Assembly (NCBI GenBank): GCA_016389475.1 | Contig: GCA_016389475.1_3042.1 | Source: a phage | Reading direction: 5' to 3' (one strand) | DNA length: 64,000 nucleotides | In this document: positions 1,546 through 34,903 of the stretch, in pieces | Position numbering within the stretch: the stretch's first letter is position 1 | How the letters are laid out: every line of letters starts with the position of its first letter | Program-made: the position numbers and the translations under genes | The notes under the pieces: model-generated | The model's database searches: none | Seen by the model: only the letters and a program-made list of their open reading frames with translations | What the model was told of the DNA's origin: nothing

Positions 1546-1575
1546 ATTATACCACATCCTTGTGGTAAAGTAAAC
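1546..1575 (-). promoter_or_regulatory. T4-type early promoter (GTTTAC-N18-TATAAT on minus strand)
   Basis: plus-strand attata at 1546-1551 and gtaaac at 1570-1575; drives rIIA.1/rIIA. Confidence 0.6.
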
Positions 1576-3395
1576 TACTGGCTCATCCATTCTTTACGAA
1601 GGTCAGCATTATCTCCCATGAGCATTTCAAAAAGCTCTTTCCAGTTCTCAGGAAGTTTAACAACATCATATACTGGGTTTTGAATCATCTCACGATATTC
1701 AGATTTTTCCAAAGAGCCAAGTCCCTTAATATAACGGATGCTATGTTTAGGTAGAGCATCTTTGGCACTCTCATATTCAGCGACTGTATAAAACCATTCT
1801 TGTTTTTTACCGACCTGAGCGATGATTACAGGAGTTTTGACAAAGCGAATTCTTCCTTGTTCAAACAGTTCTGGCCAATTACTAAAAAATCCGAGCAGAG
1901 AAGGATAAATGCTTCCTAAACCATCATGGTCAGCATCGGTCATAATAGCAATATTATGATAATTCAAGTTTTCAGCTTTTTCACCAAGAACTAATCCAGT
2001 GATTGCGCAAATATCAAATAGTTCTTTGTTTTTAAGCATATCAGCATATGACATACCCCAACTGTTGAGAACTTTACCACGCAATGGATAACCACCATGA
2101 AGTTCTTTATCACGAACATCAATAAGATATCCGATAGCAGAATCACCCTCAGTCAAGAAAAGAGTAGTGTCAGCATCTTTACCGCAAAGATTCGCTTTGA
2201 TATGTTTATGAACCTTAGCTTTAGAAGCCTTTTTAGCTGCTTTAGTTTCTGCTGCTTTTTCTGCTGCTAATTTACGTGCTAAAGCAGCTTCAATAATCGG
2301 CATTAAAATTGCTTCATTATTTAGAATAGCGCGTGAAATCTTTTTAGCATCAAGTTGAATATGACTACGAATTTCACCAAAAGGAGAAGTAAGTCGTTCT
2401 TTAGTTTGAGAATCAAATCGCATGTTTTTCATATCACGAACAAACATAACGATAGTCAAACATTCTTTGACACGTGCTTTAGTTACATCAATTTTGAACT
2501 TACGTTTGATTTGTGGAATAAGGTCTTCACAAATATCATCCATAACACAGTCAATGTGATGGCCACCATTCTTAGTGTGAATGTTATTCACATAAGTTAA
2601 TTGACGAAAACCATCAGGTGAACGACCAACCGCAATAGAACAATTTTCTTGTTCTTGAACAATAGCATGTTCATCATACTGCCGTGCATATTTCTTAAAA
2701 TTGCCCTGAACCTTTTTACCATTAAAAGTAAATTGAATATCAGGATAAACAACAGCAAGTGTCTGAAGACGATCTAGTGTAATGTCAAGATAAACTTGGG
2801 ACAGCTCATTAGTTTCAAATGACATAAAATCAGGAATGAAAGTAACACGAGTTCCTTTCCATTTTCCTGGAATAGTTTCCCATGATTTATTTTCCATGCC
2901 ATTTGAACAACGAACTACAATATTATTTTGACCATCGCCAGTTTCACCGACAAACATCACAGAAAAAATGTTAGTTAAACTAGAACCAACACCATTCATA
3001 CCACCGGTGACACGTTCTTTATCATCACCAAAGTTACCACCTGCTTTTGGAATAGTCCACGCAGCAACAGGACCAGGAATTTCTTCACCAGTAGGTGTTT
3101 TAACCATCGCTTGTGGAATACCGCGACCGTTATCTTCAACTGTCACCTGATTATTTTTAATGGTAACATTAATTTTATTTGCGAACTTAAATTTAGTACG
3201 AATACCTTCATCGACTGAGTTATCGATAATTTCATCAATAAGCTTAACAAGACCAGGTACATACTGAACACTTTCCCATTTACCAAACAGAAAGCGCTCA
3301 TGCATTTCATTAGCAGAAGAGCCAATGTACATGCCACTACGCTTTTTGATATGTTCAATATCGCTCAGAATTTTAATTTCATTCTTAATCATCAC
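1575..3395 (-). CDS. 39: DNA topoisomerase II large subunit, single uninterrupted ORF (606 aa)
   Basis: ORF track; MIKNEIKILSDIEHIKKRSGMYIGS N-terminus and GHKL ATPase motifs match T4 gp39; the C-terminal part that T4 encodes separately as gene 60 is fused in-frame. Confidence 0.95.
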   Translation of the reverse strand: MMIKNEIKILSDIEHIKKRSGMYIGSSANEMHERFLFGKWESVQYVPGLVKLIDEIIDNSVDEGIRTKFKFANKINVTIKNNQVTVEDNGRGIPQAMVKTPTGEEIPGPVAAWTIPKAGGNFGDDKERVTGGMNGVGSSLTNIFSVMFVGETGDGQNNIVVRCSNGMENKSWETIPGKWKGTRVTFIPDFMSFETNELSQVYLDITLDRLQTLAVVYPDIQFTFNGKKVQGNFKKYARQYDEHAIVQEQENCSIAVGRSPDGFRQLTYVNNIHTKNGGHHIDCVMDDICEDLIPQIKRKFKIDVTKARVKECLTIVMFVRDMKNMRFDSQTKERLTSPFGEIRSHIQLDAKKISRAILNNEAILMPIIEAALARKLAAEKAAETKAAKKASKAKVHKHIKANLCGKDADTTLFLTEGDSAIGYLIDVRDKELHGGYPLRGKVLNSWGMSYADMLKNKELFDICAITGLVLGEKAENLNYHNIAIMTDADHDGLGSIYPSLLGFFSNWPELFEQGRIRFVKTPVIIAQVGKKQEWFYTVAEYESAKDALPKHSIRYIKGLGSLEKSEYREMIQNPVYDVVKLPENWKELFEMLMGDNADLRKEWMSQ

Positions 3396-4937: not shown

Positions 4938-5207
4938 TTAATTGAACAGTGGAGCGATGCGTTTCAGAAGAGTAGCAGCACCTTTAGCGAATTTTACATC
5001 ATGAAAAACAGTTTCTTCTTCCGTTACAACACGAGCTTTAATGTTTTCACAATCCCAATTTTTGCGAACAATCTTCAAAAGCTGCAGTAAATCTTTACAT
5101 TCAGCAATATCGATAACACATCCACGAGAATTTTCCATTATCGCACGATAACCGTAAGCCATACCATAATCGTTGAAAGATTGCTCGATGATAATTAAGT
5201 TTTCCAT
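4938..5207 (-). CDS. hypothetical protein (89 aa from ATG)
   Basis: ORF track (start given as TTG at 5219); ATG at 5207 preceded by GGAG RBS; first gene behind a promoter-like leader. Confidence 0.5.
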   Translation of the reverse strand: MENLIIIEQSFNDYGMAYGYRAIMENSRGCVIDIAECKDLLQLLKIVRKNWDCENIKARVVTEEETVFHDVKFAKGAATLLKRIAPLFN

Positions 5208-14600: not shown

Positions 14601-14741
14601 TTACAATTTAGCGGCTTTCCAGAGTTGTTCAATAATCTCTTGGTCTATTTCTTTAGTTATTTCATTACGTAATAAAGCAGTAAGGGCTTTCGCCCTTTTC
14701 TTATTCAACTTTTTGAGTTGACGTTTATTTAAACGAGACAT
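14601..14741 (-). CDS. basic micro-ORF (46 aa), absent from ORF track
   Basis: Hand translation MSRLNKRQLKKLNKKRAKALTALLRNEITKEIDQEIIEQLWKAAKL; start overlaps gene 56 stop. Confidence 0.3.
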   Translation of the reverse strand: MSRLNKRQLKKLNKKRAKALTALLRNEITKEIDQEIIEQLWKAAKL

Positions 14742-15259
14742 TAATAACCTCGGTCCTGACGTGCGAAATTTTCAGCATTTTTCAGGTAATAAAGTTTAAA
14801 GATTTCTTCAGCTGTAAGACCAAGACCCTGGAACATATTCAGAACGAAATGAAGAATATCAATCATTTCAAATTTAATTTCTAACTGGTCTTGCGGAGAC
14901 AAATCAGTAATCAGAGTTTCACGACGCTCACCATGCTGCGACTTCCAAGGTTTCCATACAGCAGATGCGTCTTTTTCACCATTACTCATACCACCAAGAG
15001 AAGTCAGAAGTTCACGGAATTCATCGTCAATATAATCTTTCTGATTACGCAACCAATCAACAACTTCACCGGCAGTAGCCAAGTCATCAGGATGACGATT
15101 ATATTCAGGTTTATCTTTAGCTAAACGAATTTGCAGAGATTTCTGCATGTCAAGCATTACCTGCAGCGGGTCTTTTTCATCACCGAGAATATCCCAATAT
15201 TCATTTTGAGCTTTATCAGCGCCTTCGATCAGTTGACTACATTCGTTGAAATGTGGCAT
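14741..15259 (-). CDS. 56: dCTP/dUTP pyrophosphatase (MazG-like)
   Basis: ORF track 172 aa; size and position match T4 gp56. Confidence 0.85.
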   Translation of the reverse strand: MPHFNECSQLIEGADKAQNEYWDILGDEKDPLQVMLDMQKSLQIRLAKDKPEYNRHPDDLATAGEVVDWLRNQKDYIDDEFRELLTSLGGMSNGEKDASAVWKPWKSQHGERRETLITDLSPQDQLEIKFEMIDILHFVLNMFQGLGLTAEEIFKLYYLKNAENFARQDRGY

Positions 15260-15295
15260 GTTATTTTTCCTTTCAATTCATGGGTTAGTAGATTA

Positions 15296-15320
15296 ATTAT
15301 ACAATAAATATATAAAGCAA
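15296..15320 (-). promoter_or_regulatory. putative MotA-dependent middle promoter for gene 56
   Basis: minus strand reads TTGCTTTA (MotA box), 11-nt gap, TATAAT. Confidence 0.35.
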
Positions 15321-15332
15321 TAAGGAGGACAT

Positions 15333-15533
15333 ATGGTACAAAAATTAATGGCACTTGTTAATGCCATAAAAGGTAATAAAAAACGTATAGCTTTTACTAT
15401 TTCTGCTATGGTAGGAATTTTACTCTGGAACTTTATTCTATCACCTGTTGCAATTGCGCATGGTATTAATATTCCAGTAGTTACTCTTGATACATTTGTA
15501 GATTTAGCATTTGCTTTAGTTGGGTTAATTTAA
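15333..15533 (+). CDS. small hydrophobic protein (66 aa) on the opposite strand
   Basis: ORF track; AAGGAGG RBS 4 nt before ATG; two predicted TM segments; fills the gap between genes 56 and 61; stop overlaps gene 61 stop convergently. Confidence 0.35.
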   Translation: MVQKLMALVNAIKGNKKRIAFTISAMVGILLWNFILSPVAIAHGINIPVVTLDTFVDLAFALVGLI

Positions 15534-19651: not shown

Positions 19652-19996
19652 TTAAAAGAATTTAAATTTTTTCTTTGACCTTTTATTAAATGCATCTTGT
19701 AGTTGCATTGTAATACATTTTTCTACATGAGGAGCTAACTCAGCTTTTCTTTCTTGGTCAAGAACAGCAAAGTCCATTACGACTTTTCCATCAACCCAAT
19801 CTAATTTTGTCACATACACAATGTGTGTAGAACCATCTTCTAGTTTAATGACAATCTCCTGGATAACATTTTCCATGGCAGATTTAATTATCTTAAGAGA
19901 TTCATTAAAAAGACGTTCTTTTCTTTCTTCTTCCCCCTCCGAAGAGGGGGATTCATCGATAATTTCTAGATCTAAATCTAAATCATCTTTATTCAT
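19652..19996 (-). CDS. 40: head vertex assembly protein gp40 (114 aa from ATG)
   Basis: ORF track starts at GTG 20014; ATG at 19996 overlaps uvsX stop by 8 nt. Confidence 0.65.
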   Translation of the reverse strand: MNKDDLDLDLEIIDESPSSEGEEERKERLFNESLKIIKSAMENVIQEIVIKLEDGSTHIVYVTKLDWVDGKVVMDFAVLDQERKAELAPHVEKCITMQLQDAFNKRSKKKFKFF

Positions 19997-21170
19997 TAAA
20001 TTCTTCCATATCACTTAACTGCTCGAGGTCAGTTTCTAAATCAGCAGCTGATTTACTTTTACTTTCTGGAGATTTAAATTTTTCAACCTTTGAGTTAATT
20101 AATTCATCAACTTCAGCTTCAACAATTTCATTACTATCAATAGCACCTAACTGATAAGCGCGTTTAATAGCATCTCGGAATGGTTGATGCTTAAATAAAG
20201 GACCCCAGAATGTAGTGCAGTTGGTATCTTTTGCACGCCAAGATTTTTCTTCGCGAATCATCTCGCCGGTTTCTTCGTCAAGAAATTCACGAGCATACCA
20301 GCCATTTTTAGGTTTTACTACAAATCCTAATTCTAGAGCCATATCTAACAATCCAGAATAAGGATCGATACCACCGTCAAATTTAACATCAATAAAGAAT
20401 TTACTTTTTTCTTTAACGGTACGAGATTTTTCTACATTTAGAACAAATTGATACCCCTGAAGATCAGAACCATCTTTAATCTGGCGTTTACCGATAATGA
20501 ATACAGTATCAGCCGAATACATTACGCCTGTACCACCTGTCATCACGGTTTTACTAAACATTTCAATTGTTTCAATTGTATGGTTAACCGCAACACATGG
20601 AATATTTTTAATGCTAAAGTAAGGAGTAACAATACGGAATAATGACTTCAGTGATTTAGCACGAGTCATATCTGCCACAGATTTTTCATTCAAGGCATCT
20701 TCCGTTTCTTTCTTAGAAGCCATATTACCGATTGAGTCGATGAATACAATAACCTTTTCACCACGCTCAATAGCTTCAAGCTGATTCACCATATCAATTT
20801 TCAGCTGTTCAACTGACTGAATTGGCGTATGAATTACTCGTTCCGGGTCAACTCCCATGGATCGCAAATAAGCTGGAGTAATACCAAATTCGCTATCATA
20901 GAATAGACAAACCGCGTCAGGATATTTGTTCAAATATGCCGCAACCATAGTCAAAGACATATTTGATTTAAAGTGTTTAGAAGGCCCTGCGAAAATAGTT
21001 AAACCAGACTGCATGCCGCCATCAATCGCACCAGAAATAGCAATATTAAGCATTGGAATTTTTGTACGAATTACATCCTTTTCATTAAAGAATTTAGATG
21101 TAGTCAGTTCAGCAGTCATTTTAGAAGTGGAAGCTTTAATCAAACGGGATTTTAAATCTGCAATAGACAT
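19989..21170 (-). CDS. uvsX: UvsX recombinase (RecA-like)
   Basis: ORF track 393 aa; RecA fold motifs; position between 41/40 and 42. Confidence 0.95.
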   Translation of the reverse strand: MSIADLKSRLIKASTSKMTAELTTSKFFNEKDVIRTKIPMLNIAISGAIDGGMQSGLTIFAGPSKHFKSNMSLTMVAAYLNKYPDAVCLFYDSEFGITPAYLRSMGVDPERVIHTPIQSVEQLKIDMVNQLEAIERGEKVIVFIDSIGNMASKKETEDALNEKSVADMTRAKSLKSLFRIVTPYFSIKNIPCVAVNHTIETIEMFSKTVMTGGTGVMYSADTVFIIGKRQIKDGSDLQGYQFVLNVEKSRTVKEKSKFFIDVKFDGGIDPYSGLLDMALELGFVVKPKNGWYAREFLDEETGEMIREEKSWRAKDTNCTTFWGPLFKHQPFRDAIKRAYQLGAIDSNEIVEAEVDELINSKVEKFKSPESKSKSAADLETDLEQLSDMEEFNE

Positions 21171-21247
21171 TCATTTTTTCCATAGGCATCATTATATTTT
21201 CCTCACTGGTTAAAGATAGAGTAATTATAACACAATAAATTTAGGCA

Positions 21248-22090
21248 TTAATCAACTGCTATTGGATGAATAGCATTAAACTTATGAAATGCTTCTGATT
21301 TTTCTTTACGCGAAACACACATGCGAAGAACCTTTAGTGGTTCATCTTCTTCACCCAACGATTTTCGTTTTTCAATATTAGAAGTTTTCCAACGAGCTTG
21401 CTCTGGAAACTCTCTATTGATTTGCTCAAGCGCTCTATTATGTTTAGAATTACTGCGAATTGAACTACACCCACCAGGAGCTTGTGCTTTTCCAGATACA
21501 ACCAGATATTTGAACAAGGCCAAATGCGGATAACCTTGATTAATTAAATTGAGAAATGCATACATATCTTCGCACAAATCAATTTTTCCATACCCAATTT
21601 GTTCTGTCGTAAGTTTTCCGAGGTCATACCATGTATTCGTGAATCCATATGAGTTTTCACGATAATTACCCCAAGATGAAGTAATTTTAAAAATTGGTAG
21701 GCGAGCATGACCGTGATAATACCCGCAATCCATGGCATCTTCGACGTATTGAATCAATTCATAGAACTGTTCATGAGTCAATTGATTGACTTTATCTACA
21801 CAACGACGGTCATCTCTTTTTCGCATTGAACTCATACGAATAGTAGTATCATCGTCAATCATCCAGATTCGTTGACCTGCATACATATCAGTAATTGCTT
21901 TACGAGTACCGGCAATTCCGTTTACATCATCAGGAATAGTTACAATTTTAGCTCTAGACCCATAGGCATCATAATAAGCTTTTTCTTCATGTTCACGCAC
22001 TACAATATGGGGTTCATAATCAGTCGGAAACATATCAAGGGCAGAAACTGCCCCGACACGCTGATAACTTGGAATTACGAATTGAATCAT
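21248..22090 (-). CDS. DxD-motif glycosyltransferase in the beta-gt slot (280 aa from ATG)
   Basis: ORF track (GTG start at 22096); ATG at 22090 in ATGA overlap with gene 42; IWMIDDDTTI DxD motif; much shorter than T4 beta-gt (351 aa, GT-B). Confidence 0.6.
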   Translation of the reverse strand: MIQFVIPSYQRVGAVSALDMFPTDYEPHIVVREHEEKAYYDAYGSRAKIVTIPDDVNGIAGTRKAITDMYAGQRIWMIDDDTTIRMSSMRKRDDRRCVDKVNQLTHEQFYELIQYVEDAMDCGYYHGHARLPIFKITSSWGNYRENSYGFTNTWYDLGKLTTEQIGYGKIDLCEDMYAFLNLINQGYPHLALFKYLVVSGKAQAPGGCSSIRSNSKHNRALEQINREFPEQARWKTSNIEKRKSLGEEDEPLKVLRMCVSRKEKSEAFHKFNAIHPIAVD

Positions 22091-22827
22091 TTCCACTCAC
22101 CGTTATAGTCTTTTTTCACAATATGAGTTTCGCCAGTATTCCACCAATGATCAACCAAGTAAAAATGACGAGAATATACATGAAGACTTCCGACATTCCA
22201 TATAATAGAACCTGCTTTATACTGACGAGTTGAATCGCCTGCATTCAAATCAGATACTAATTTATCTAATACGTATTTTTGCCATGCATAATCATTACGG
22301 AATCCGAAGACCACGTCATTTGAGCGCATGCTTACTACTGCATTGACTTTCTTATCACGAATCAAGTACTGTACTGTATTAGTACACATGAAATCTGACA
22401 TACCATCTTTATTGTAATCAAATTGCATGGATGGACGAGTATAAATCATGATACCACGTCGAGAATCAGGATTTTGACCAAGTTCAGCTAAACACATATC
22501 ATACTGGGCATAGTTATCTTCTGACCAAATAGCCCAACCATAATTCGAGTTAATTTCGCCTTTAGAAGATGCTACCTGCTGCCAAATCTTTGGTGTTTCA
22601 CCTGGAATATCTTTAACAAACAAACTCTTAGATTTATACCATTCAAGTTCGCGCTGAATGTATTCATCATTGAGAGCGCCAAAAATAAACGGTTCATCTG
22701 CTACAAATGATGCGCCAATAATTTCAATAGTTTTAACACCAGTTTTATCAACTACGAAATCTTTTTCCTTTAATGCAAGCCCCAAATGAAGACGGATTTC
22801 TTCAACTGTCATAGAGTCACTAATCAT
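22087..22827 (-). CDS. 42: dCMP hydroxymethylase
   Basis: ORF track 246 aa; thymidylate-synthase-like fold; length equals T4 gp42. Confidence 0.95.
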   Translation of the reverse strand: MISDSMTVEEIRLHLGLALKEKDFVVDKTGVKTIEIIGASFVADEPFIFGALNDEYIQRELEWYKSKSLFVKDIPGETPKIWQQVASSKGEINSNYGWAIWSEDNYAQYDMCLAELGQNPDSRRGIMIYTRPSMQFDYNKDGMSDFMCTNTVQYLIRDKKVNAVVSMRSNDVVFGFRNDYAWQKYVLDKLVSDLNAGDSTRQYKAGSIIWNVGSLHVYSRHFYLVDHWWNTGETHIVKKDYNGEWK

Positions 22828-22980
22828 TTAAACCTCAATTGATGCATTCATATTTAAATTGTAACAGTAATAAACCCCACCCTATGATAAGAGTTGGAAT
22901 CATAGCAGGAACTGTTACGCTATAGTATATACTTATTATAACCATCAAGATTAAAAGCAACACTGTTATAATTTTGCTTT

Positions 22981-23232
22981 TCATTCTTTCTCTCTGATGA
23001 TAATTACCTGATTTGGCTGTGCAGACTTTTTAGTTTCACCAGCAATTGACCAAATAAATGTAATAAACCAACCAATAATTGACCAGTTAAACAGTAAAGA
23101 TGTGAAAAAGATTCCTACTGTCGATTTTGACCCACGCATCAAGGCGATAAACCATGGAAGCATGTATATAATAATAGCCAACACACCTGAAACTAAAACC
23201 ATAAAAATTGAACCTGCTACTAAAGTTTCCAT
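22981..23232 (-). CDS. imm: immunity (superinfection exclusion) membrane protein
   Basis: ORF track 83 aa; two TM segments; matches T4 Imm. Confidence 0.85.
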   Translation of the reverse strand: METLVAGSIFMVLVSGVLAIIIYMLPWFIALMRGSKSTVGIFFTSLLFNWSIIGWFITFIWSIAGETKKSAQPNQVIIIREKE

Positions 23233-23239
23233 GTTTTCC

Positions 23240-23620
23240 TCACTTAGTCAAATTTTTTACACATGAATTATAAGAATTCACTACATACTCCATCGGAGCA
23301 TTTTTACCAGTACGCCATTGGTAATTATTAGCCCAATTAGCCCAAATTTCGGCGCAGTAGTTTTCAATTTTTTCTTCGTGTGTAATTACATCAGAATTAC
23401 GATATGCTTGAGCAGATTCATCTGGACGAATAGCTTCGTCAAAATTCGCCTGCATTTGTTCGACTGTTTGCTTTGGAGCTTCTTTATAACACTTGACATT
23501 AGGATTATAAAATTTGCTTGAACAGTTTACAATTTTTCCTACATCAGACTGATTTACTACCGGTCCTTGAGCCACACAACCAGTAAGACCTAATGCAATA
23601 ACCAAAATAGCGATTTTCAT
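23240..23620 (-). CDS. lipoprotein (126 aa)
   Basis: ORF track; signal peptide with LTGC lipobox. Confidence 0.55.
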   Translation of the reverse strand: MKIAILVIALGLTGCVAQGPVVNQSDVGKIVNCSSKFYNPNVKCYKEAPKQTVEQMQANFDEAIRPDESAQAYRNSDVITHEEKIENYCAEIWANWANNYQWRTGKNAPMEYVVNSYNSCVKNLTK

Positions 23621-33684: not shown

Positions 33685-33702
33685 AAAGGGCCGAAGCCCT
33701 TT
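33685..33702 (-). terminator. C(UUCG)G tetraloop hairpin overlapping alpha-gt stop
   Basis: aaagggc-cgaa-gcccttt. Confidence 0.45.
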
Positions 33703-34903
33703 ATTTTGTAATAATGTCAAACTGTTCTTTAAAGCAGAAGCTTGAATCTTGGTGCTGATACAAAAATTCATATGCTTTTTCTCGCTCACGGTCATAAAGA
33801 GTTCGGTCAGATGACAGTTCTTTAATACGTTCAAATGTTGATTCCATGTCATTTTCATCAAACCAAATGATACCGCTATCATGCGAGGTCAAAGGAGTAT
33901 TATCAACACGGAATTTTAAATTTTCGCCAGTAGATTTCCAAAATACCGGAATTGTTCCACATGCACCAAGCTCGAGATGAGTATATTCTAAAGAACGTTG
34001 TAGATATTTTTTATCCAACTTACTCAACTGATAACCAAAACCGGATTTACTCATACGTTCAAGCATTTCGCTATTTACATAACGGTCAAGAATTTGCGTT
34101 GGCAAATTAGGAGCAATTTTAATTTGGTCTACTTGATGAAGACGATAATACTCGTATGGAATTCCTTTTTCTTTAATAGGAATGAACGCTGGAGAACGTT
34201 CCAGACCTTCCATAATAGTACTTAGTCCTGCAGGTTTAAGATGTTTTTCATGAAAATCAAACATCTGATAAAAACCTTTCCATGTAGTCGTACGACCAAT
34301 CCAACGGTTGATATTCATGTTAATTTCAGAAACATCTTTCCAGTAAGTTGACCGAACCTTCGCAATATCCATAGGAGGCTGAAAGTTATATACGGTCGGT
34401 GCTTCTTCAATATCATCAAACAGAGAAACAGTTTCTGGATACCACTCTTTCATCAGAACTTTATTAAAATCACCATTATCAGAATGGCTAAAAATAACAT
34501 CAGCTCGACGAACAGTTTCTTCTAATCCCAAATTTCGACGCAAAGAAAGAGAAGAATGGTCATGTTGATAAACTACAACACGAACAGAAGGTTTAATGTT
34601 ATCAATAATTTTTTTATAGTTATTAATAGTGTCTTCTTCAACCGAAGTAGCAGGAACTGAATTGATAATTAGAATATCACAATCATTTACCAGCTTAAGT
34701 GTTTTATCATATTCTTTTGCCAATAAAACCGGAATTGAAAATGATTTATAATCATGCGCGCAATTACGAGTAAATGATTTATCTTTAGCATAAACCAAAG
34801 TCACTTCATGACCATTTTTAATAAACCAATCACGTTGCTCGAGTGAGAATTTAGTTACACCACAGCCTTCAAGACCTCGAGCCATAAAAATACATACTTT
34901 CAT
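33701..34903 (-). CDS. a-gt: DNA alpha-glucosyltransferase
   Basis: ORF track 400 aa; CIFMARGLEGCGVTKFSLEQRDWFIKNGHEVTLVYAKDKSF matches T4 alpha-gt. Confidence 0.9.
   Translation of the reverse strand: MKVCIFMARGLEGCGVTKFSLEQRDWFIKNGHEVTLVYAKDKSFTRNCAHDYKSFSIPVLLAKEYDKTLKLVNDCDILIINSVPATSVEEDTINNYKKIIDNIKPSVRVVVYQHDHSSLSLRRNLGLEETVRRADVIFSHSDNGDFNKVLMKEWYPETVSLFDDIEEAPTVYNFQPPMDIAKVRSTYWKDVSEINMNINRWIGRTTTWKGFYQMFDFHEKHLKPAGLSTIMEGLERSPAFIPIKEKGIPYEYYRLHQVDQIKIAPNLPTQILDRYVNSEMLERMSKSGFGYQLSKLDKKYLQRSLEYTHLELGACGTIPVFWKSTGENLKFRVDNTPLTSHDSGIIWFDENDMESTFERIKELSSDRTLYDREREKAYEFLYQHQDSSFCFKEQFDIITK

Follow-up and report, generated by a model that had tools for sequence, protein, structure and literature searches.

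In phages of the T2/T6 type, a second glucosyltransferase, the product of the ba-gt gene (also ggt or TAGT; beta-glucosyl-HMC-alpha-glucosyltransferase), works together with an alpha-glucosyltransferase (alpha-gt). The classical biochemistry of the enzyme comes from Lehman & Pratt 1960, Kornberg et al. 1961, and Kuno & Lehman 1962, as cited in PMC13216743 (refs 17, 18, and 21). The TAGT of T6 is a GT-A enzyme and a sister group to GT2 (PMC13216743). An alpha-GT together with a TAGT is the common arrangement in Tequatrovirus, and the alpha and beta pair of T4 is a rarity. The T4-type pair was found in only 6 of 753 phage genomes (PMC13216743), and alpha-gt with ba-gt in 12 of the 14 sequenced T4-like 'RB' phages (PMC6024577). 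The extent of gentiobiosylation of 5-hydroxymethylcytosine (hmC) varies widely among phages with ba-gt, being 5% in T2 and 72% in T6 (PMC6024577). LC-MS of phage NR1 DNA gave about one third hmdC, about two thirds alpha-gentiobiosyl-mdC, a background of alpha-glucosyl-mdC, and no beta-glucosyl form, and the phages Geo and BGP were intermediate, with an hmC : glucosyl : gentiobiosyl ratio of 1:2:2 (PMC13390438). Evidence for the role of ba-gt also came from T6 lacking the gene, whose DNA behaves as if it contained only alpha-glucosyl-hmC: Brig1 degrades it and BapA frees glucose from it (PMC11078745; bioRxiv 10.64898/2026.02.25.707755).

Which host defences are effective against a T-even phage depends on the sugar pattern of its hmC. 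Alpha-glucosyl-hmC is excised by Brig1, which does not degrade T6 DNA, where gentiobiosyl-hmC predominates. GmrSD-type enzymes cut all forms, and Brig3 targets the bare hmC that phages with alpha-gt and ba-gt keep. A preliminary description of the locus studied here had proposed that the pattern determines sensitivity to modification-dependent restriction. Published work agrees, in that T6 without ba-gt is more sensitive to Brig1 (PMC11078745) and BapA is unable to strip gentiobiose, that is, to remove glucose from gentiobiosyl-hmC (bioRxiv 10.64898/2026.02.25.707755). Because defences differ in the sugar form on which they act, a correct annotation of ba-gt predicts the host range and defence sensitivity of a therapeutic or model phage.

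In the window, by which is meant the whole 64-kb stretch of phage DNA that was analysed, the ba-gt gene occupies 21248..22090 on the minus strand (280 aa plus a stop). The slot between uvsX and gene 42 was thus found to hold a 280-aa protein with the sequence IWMIDDDTTI, just as the preliminary description had reported. In the ORF listing, the open frame extends over 21248-22096 (-), and reading it from the ATG at 22090 yields the 280 residues and the stop. This ATG is the annotated ba-gt start in AR1, T2, NR1, and Geo. A GTG at 22096, two codons upstream, would give 282 aa and is a less likely start, since the annotated orthologues all use ATG. Translation from the ATG begins MIQFVIPSYQR, and MIQFVIPSY is a conserved N-terminus, which also favours ATG over GTG. 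The start codon of ba-gt overlaps the stop codon of gene 42 in the four bases ATGA (22087..22090 (-)), and the same overlap is annotated in AR1, T2, NR1, Geo, and BGP. Such an overlap suggests co-transcription of gene 42 and ba-gt and possible translational coupling.

T2, T6, AR1, NR1, Geo, and BGP all have the order gene 42, ba-gt, uvsX seen in the window, in which ba-gt directly follows gene 42. Gene 42 (22087..22827 (-)) encodes the dCMP hydroxymethylase that makes hm-dCMP (97% identical to T4 gp42 over 245 aa). On the downstream side, a 77-bp gap (21171-21247) separates ba-gt from the recombinase gene uvsX (19989..21170 (-)), whose product is 90.5% identical to T4 UvsX and identical to the UvsX of the T6 record MH550421. 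Two partner genes lie elsewhere in the window. The a-gt gene (33701..34903 (-)) encodes the alpha-glucosyltransferase that provides ba-gt with its acceptor, alpha-glucosyl-hmC; its 400 aa align with T4 alpha-gt over the full length without gaps, at 91% identity. Gene 56 (14741..15259 (-)) encodes the dCTPase that clears the pool of dCTP and so lets hmC take the place of C, and its product shows 98.8% identity to AR1 gp56 across the full 172 aa. In other words, all of the acceptor-making enzymes, gp42, gp56, and alpha-gt, are encoded intact in the window, and the earlier statement that alpha-gt and the dCMP hydroxymethylase are intact was correct. A further feature of the window is a 606-aa ORF at 1575-3395 (-), near its start.

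A scan of the locus for promoters and terminators found sites no more numerous than in shuffled sequence. Two individual elements can be described. A perfect G+C-rich hairpin, GGGGCAGTTTCTGCCC(T), is present at 22038-22054 (-) within codons 13-18 of ba-gt, with a T-rich stretch after it. T2 and T6 have the identical hairpin, which was scored as terminator-like; the regional count of such sites does not exceed the shuffled expectation. An extended -10-like element, TGTTATAAT, is present at 21224-21232 (-), in the 77-bp gap that separates ba-gt from uvsX. This element is also identical in T2 and T6, has no -35 match, and was for that reason missed by the simple promoter scan.

The identity of the 280-aa protein was established by several comparisons. 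Residues 1-275 match PHROG 842, 'beta-glucosyl-HMC-alpha-glucosyltransferase', with E=3e-89. The only Pfam family found was PF20691 (TET-associated glycosyltransferase, TAGT), with a score of 38.4 bits where the curated gathering cut-off is 27.5, and this match is full-length, with residues 3-207 aligned to profile positions 2-205 of 205 (E=1.7e-9). The protein is 100% identical to that of phage HEMP5, differs from that of AR1 by a single substitution (V50I), and is identical to the NR1 protein at 277 of 280 positions. Besides the amber codon described below, it differs by three substitutions from the reading frame in T6 MH550421. A tblastn search found a homologue in 689 phage records, of which 473 are at least 95% identical (among them T2, 98.6%, and HEMP5, 100%). 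Many Tequatrovirus genomes in which ba-gt is annotated by name match the 2.1-kb region at 98-98.6% DNA identity. The alignments that the preliminary description had proposed as a check gave 276 of 280 identical residues without gaps for T2 and no similarity for T4 beta-gt. Nothing in the sequence of the window ba-gt counts against a T2/T6-type identity. The orthology, the intact gene with its motifs, the fold class, the genome position, and the partner genes are all shown for this phage.

The DxD motif, which binds metal and nucleotide sugar, is formed by Asp79-Asp80-Asp81, encoded by GAC GAT GAT at 21848..21856 (-); IWMIDDDTTI corresponds to residues 75-84. The family was collected in an exhaustive HMMER search that gave 335 cluster representatives at E<=0.001, and conservation was assessed in an alignment of 61 of these, which are 19-64% identical to the window protein. 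Only five columns of that alignment are invariant (R11, D80, D175, G186, and G207), and all five residues are present in the window protein. D79 and D81 are at least 90% conserved among the 61 representatives. The wider conserved set, R11, D79-D81, D175, G186, G206/G207, and R212, is likewise complete in the window protein.

What fold does the protein adopt? A sequence search of the PDB returned no relative with a solved structure, the best hit being an unrelated protein at E=1.5. An AlphaFold2 model was built from a shallow alignment of ten homologues, a word-indexed protein search having given just 11. The model is of moderate quality (mean pLDDT 68.7, pTM 0.69). Its N-terminal strand-helix repeats have a pLDDT of 84-95, and residues 126-151 and the C-terminus fall below 50. 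Its fold matches were GT-A enzymes and related nucleotidyltransferases, with no GT-B enzyme among them. Features of GT-A enzymes, a single Rossmann-like alpha/beta domain and a DxD after the central strand, are seen in the predicted model. The ba-gt product thus appears to have a GT-A-like fold.

At the equivalent position, T4 carries segA and a 351-aa beta-gt. The borders of the exchanged segment were located by blastn of window positions 19900-23300 against T4. DNA homology to T4 ends some 12 nt into uvsX, at 21158, and restarts at 22105, some 18 nt short of the gene 42 stop, leaving a segment of 946 bp (21159..22104) without DNA homology to T4, where the T4 counterpart is 1941 bp (segA and b-gt). 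Both junctions fall within coding sequence, in the last ~18 nt of gene 42 (22087-22104 (-)) and the first ~12 nt of uvsX (21159-21170 (-)). The position of one junction inside gene 42 accounts for a gp42 C-terminus unlike that of T4 (…IVKKDYNGEWK in the window, …ISKKDYVGKY in T4). No SegA-like ORF is present between uvsX and ba-gt, and tblastn with T4 SegA over the whole 64-kb window gave a best E of 1.4, in agreement with the reported lack of segA. Likewise, tblastn with T4 beta-gt over the whole 64-kb window found no T4-type beta-gt (best E=3.8). The preliminary description had also stated that the protein replaces T4 beta-gt. This holds for the shared position, but the oddity that the wording implied does not stand, since ba-gt is the majority state in Tequatrovirus.

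Thus the gene is very probably a T2/T6-type beta-glucosyl-HMC-alpha-glucosyltransferase of the TAGT family, with a DxD motif and a GT-A fold, whose product would make gentiobiosyl-hmC. The DNA would then contain hmC, alpha-glucosyl-hmC, and gentiobiosyl-hmC, and no beta-glucosyl-hmC. According to the pathway established for T2 and T6 (PMC6024577; PMC13216743; bioRxiv 10.64898/2026.02.25.707755), gp42 and gp56 would cause DNA to be built with 5-hydroxymethylcytosine in place of C. The alpha-gt enzyme would next place an alpha-linked glucose on ~70-75% of the hmC, adjacent hmC residues being out of its reach. Finally, the ba-gt product would move a second glucose, with UDP-glucose as donor, in beta-1,6 linkage onto the first one to form gentiobiosyl-hmC. 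Enzyme activity and the resulting pattern in the window phage would be as in T2, T6, and NR1, by analogy. On the same basis, about two thirds of the hmC in its DNA is expected to be gentiobiosylated and about one third bare, because the allele has every family-invariant residue, unlike that of T2, and shares 99% identity with the NR1 allele. The ratio of mono- to di-glucosyl forms is not readable from sequence with confidence, as the T2 and T6 enzymes are ~98% identical and yet give 5% vs 72%. The tentative suggestion of di-glucosylation as in T2 and T6, made in the preliminary description, is supported by the PHROG 842 hit and the many near-identical orthologues.

Comparison of alleles offers a lead on the low ratio of T2. 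The T2 protein, taken from three T2 records in full, differs from that of the window by R11H, V50I, H106R, and P251S. The gene lies at L003:3001-3843 (+), L006:7283-8125 (-), and L007:7286-8128 (-) in these records, with His11 in each. In the window, codon 11 (CGT, 22058..22060 (-)) lies in the N-terminal IPSYQR strand-loop and encodes the Arg that is invariant in 61 of 61 representatives. Since V50I and H106R are also found in the highly gentiobiosylating NR1, R11H and P251S are the T2-private changes among the alleles compared. A short exact-word megablast found the nucleotide context of the T2 allele in 8 of 50,697 phage records, namely seven T2 records and SV76, and no lineage other than T2 was seen to carry His11. 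Pattern scans of IMG/VR gave 0 contigs with the His11 allele and 6 with the Arg11 allele, numbers too small to inform. R11H may thus be a candidate cause of the 5% gentiobiosylation in T2 as against 72% in T6. The wider proposal, that codon 11 largely sets the mono-/di-glucosyl ratio in T-even phages, is tentative, is drawn from conservation, and is given rather less than an even chance. If it is true, R11H accounts for a 60-year-old difference between T2 and T6, the pattern becomes predictable from sequence, and the window phage, with Arg11, would be of the T6/NR1 type with about two thirds gentiobiosyl-hmC. No statement of R11H as the cause of the T2 pattern was found in the literature searched, to which the 1993 sequencing paper of Winkler & Rueger does not belong. 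The lead may be new, though only mildly so, and it concerns T2, not the window.

Relative to the window, NR1 has D24N, V50I, and H106R. At residue 50, where the window has Val, the nine compared records (T2, T6, AR1, NR1, Geo, and BGP) and the cluster representative P0001 all have Ile. HEMP5 shares Val50, and V50I is a conservative change at a position that varies across the family. Geo (L016:3869-4711 (-)) and BGP (L017:799-1641 (+)) share seven substitutions relative to the window: M89I, R95K, C97R, V101I, H106R, A202S, and Q203H. This allele class may tune the gentiobiosyl ratio. Among the Durham phages, the lower gentiobiosyl ratio belongs to those that have a Dam-like gene (PMC13390438). 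A tblastn search of the whole window with T2 Dam as query gave no Dam methyltransferase homologue (no hit at E<=1e-3). The interval between gene 56 and the primase gene (15260-15529) has no dam, as in AR1, and in T2 dam adjoins gene 56.

Both public T6 records carry a lesion in ba-gt. MH550421.1 has an amber TAG at codon 10 (L004 ~4951-4953 (-)), and its CDS is annotated from Met20 (261 aa); this amber allele is private to that record. AP018814.1 (= RefSeq NC_054907), with ba-gt at L005 7135-7974 (-), has lost one Asp of the DDD in frame, and the same one-Asp-short allele is present in phage HP3.2. Published surveys have taken the RefSeq T6 protein as a query, and this is the allele that lacks one Asp. 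These T6 lesions could be either true stock variants or sequencing errors.

Could the window allele be weak or inactive, leaving the DNA essentially alpha-mono-glucosylated, as in T2 with its ~5% gentiobiosyl-hmC or in T6 with ba-gt deleted? The large difference in output between the near-identical T2 and T6 alleles (PMC6024577) gives the idea some weight, as do the lesions in MH550421, AP018814, and HP3.2. However, the window gene is full length, encodes Arg11, the complete DDD, and all of the invariant residues, and lacks both T2-private changes. It differs from AR1 only at residue 50 and from NR1, with its ~2/3 gentiobiosyl-hmC, only at three variable positions (PMC13390438). A weak or inactive allele is therefore considered very unlikely.

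Even less probable is a specificity other than that of the T2/T6 enzyme, for example for bare hmC directly as acceptor or for another nucleotide sugar as donor. At 98.6-99% identity to the T2, T6, and NR1 orthologues and with the same gene neighbours, a different reaction would be surprising, and phages of the NR1 type show only hmdC, alpha-glucosyl, and alpha-gentiobiosyl forms (PMC13390438). These points outweigh the breadth of the family, which has 335 cluster representatives and is functionally diverse; its members partner with an alpha-GT or a beta-GT or occur alone, the last in 288 of 753 phage genomes (PMC13216743). The least probable reading, with a negligible chance, is that of a T4-type beta-glucosyltransferase (GT-B) that has diverged but still fills the role of T4 beta-gt. 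The shared genome position speaks for it, but Pfam, BLASTP, and the fold comparison refute it. TAGT is the sole Pfam family, the best BLASTP match to T4 beta-gt has E=0.28 over 10 residues, the lengths are 280 and 351 aa, the model matches GT-A enzymes and related nucleotidyltransferases, and the cassette DNA is non-homologous. The view of the preliminary description that the protein is a DxD-type glycosyltransferase, unlike the GT-B beta-gt of T4, is upheld on the same evidence. Two findings that it had named as contrary to its reading, an alignment with T4 beta-gt and a DxD region in a fold other than that of a glycosyltransferase, were looked for, and neither holds. The T2/T6-type identity of the enzyme is accordingly the preferred reading.

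The gene, its position shared with T4 beta-gt, the GT-A fold, its role, the T6 deletion mutants, and the LC-MS of NR1 have all been published, and the window is an ordinary member of a known group. How does it compare with the described systems? T4 beta-gt (GT-B, PF09198) resembles the window protein in genome position and, to judge from the orthologues of the latter, in the UDP-glucose donor, in the beta linkage formed, and in acting after alpha-gt. The two differ in that their sequences and folds are unrelated, and in their acceptors: T4 beta-gt acts on bare hmC, whereas ba-gt of the T2/T6 type acts on the glucose of alpha-glucosyl-hmC, so that ~25-33% of hmC stays bare (PMC6024577; PMC13390438). 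The TAGT family PF20691, sister to GT2 among the GT-A enzymes, shares with the window protein a full-length match, the five invariant residues, and the GT-A-like predicted fold. The window protein, however, belongs to a narrow T-even branch that the E value of 1.7e-9 places at the periphery of the Pfam seed. A TET/JBP dioxygenase plays no part here, as hmC comes from gp42 at the nucleotide level. NR1 (Escherichia phage vB_Eco_NR1, LR990704.1) has the same neighbours, and both its region and that of the window lack the Dam-like gene that marks the Geo/EL/BGP group (PMC13390438); apart from the three substitutions, the difference is that DNA composition was measured in NR1 and is predicted for the window phage. 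The ba-gt of T2 and T6 (PHROG 842), like that of the window, encodes 280 aa, sits between the genes 42 and uvsX with an ATGA overlap, is accompanied by an alpha-gt, and has the DDD. At residues 11, 50, 106, and 251, the T2 protein has H, I, R, and S against R, V, H, and P in the window; and where the public T6 records have Q10amber or the loss of one Asp, the window has the intact gene.
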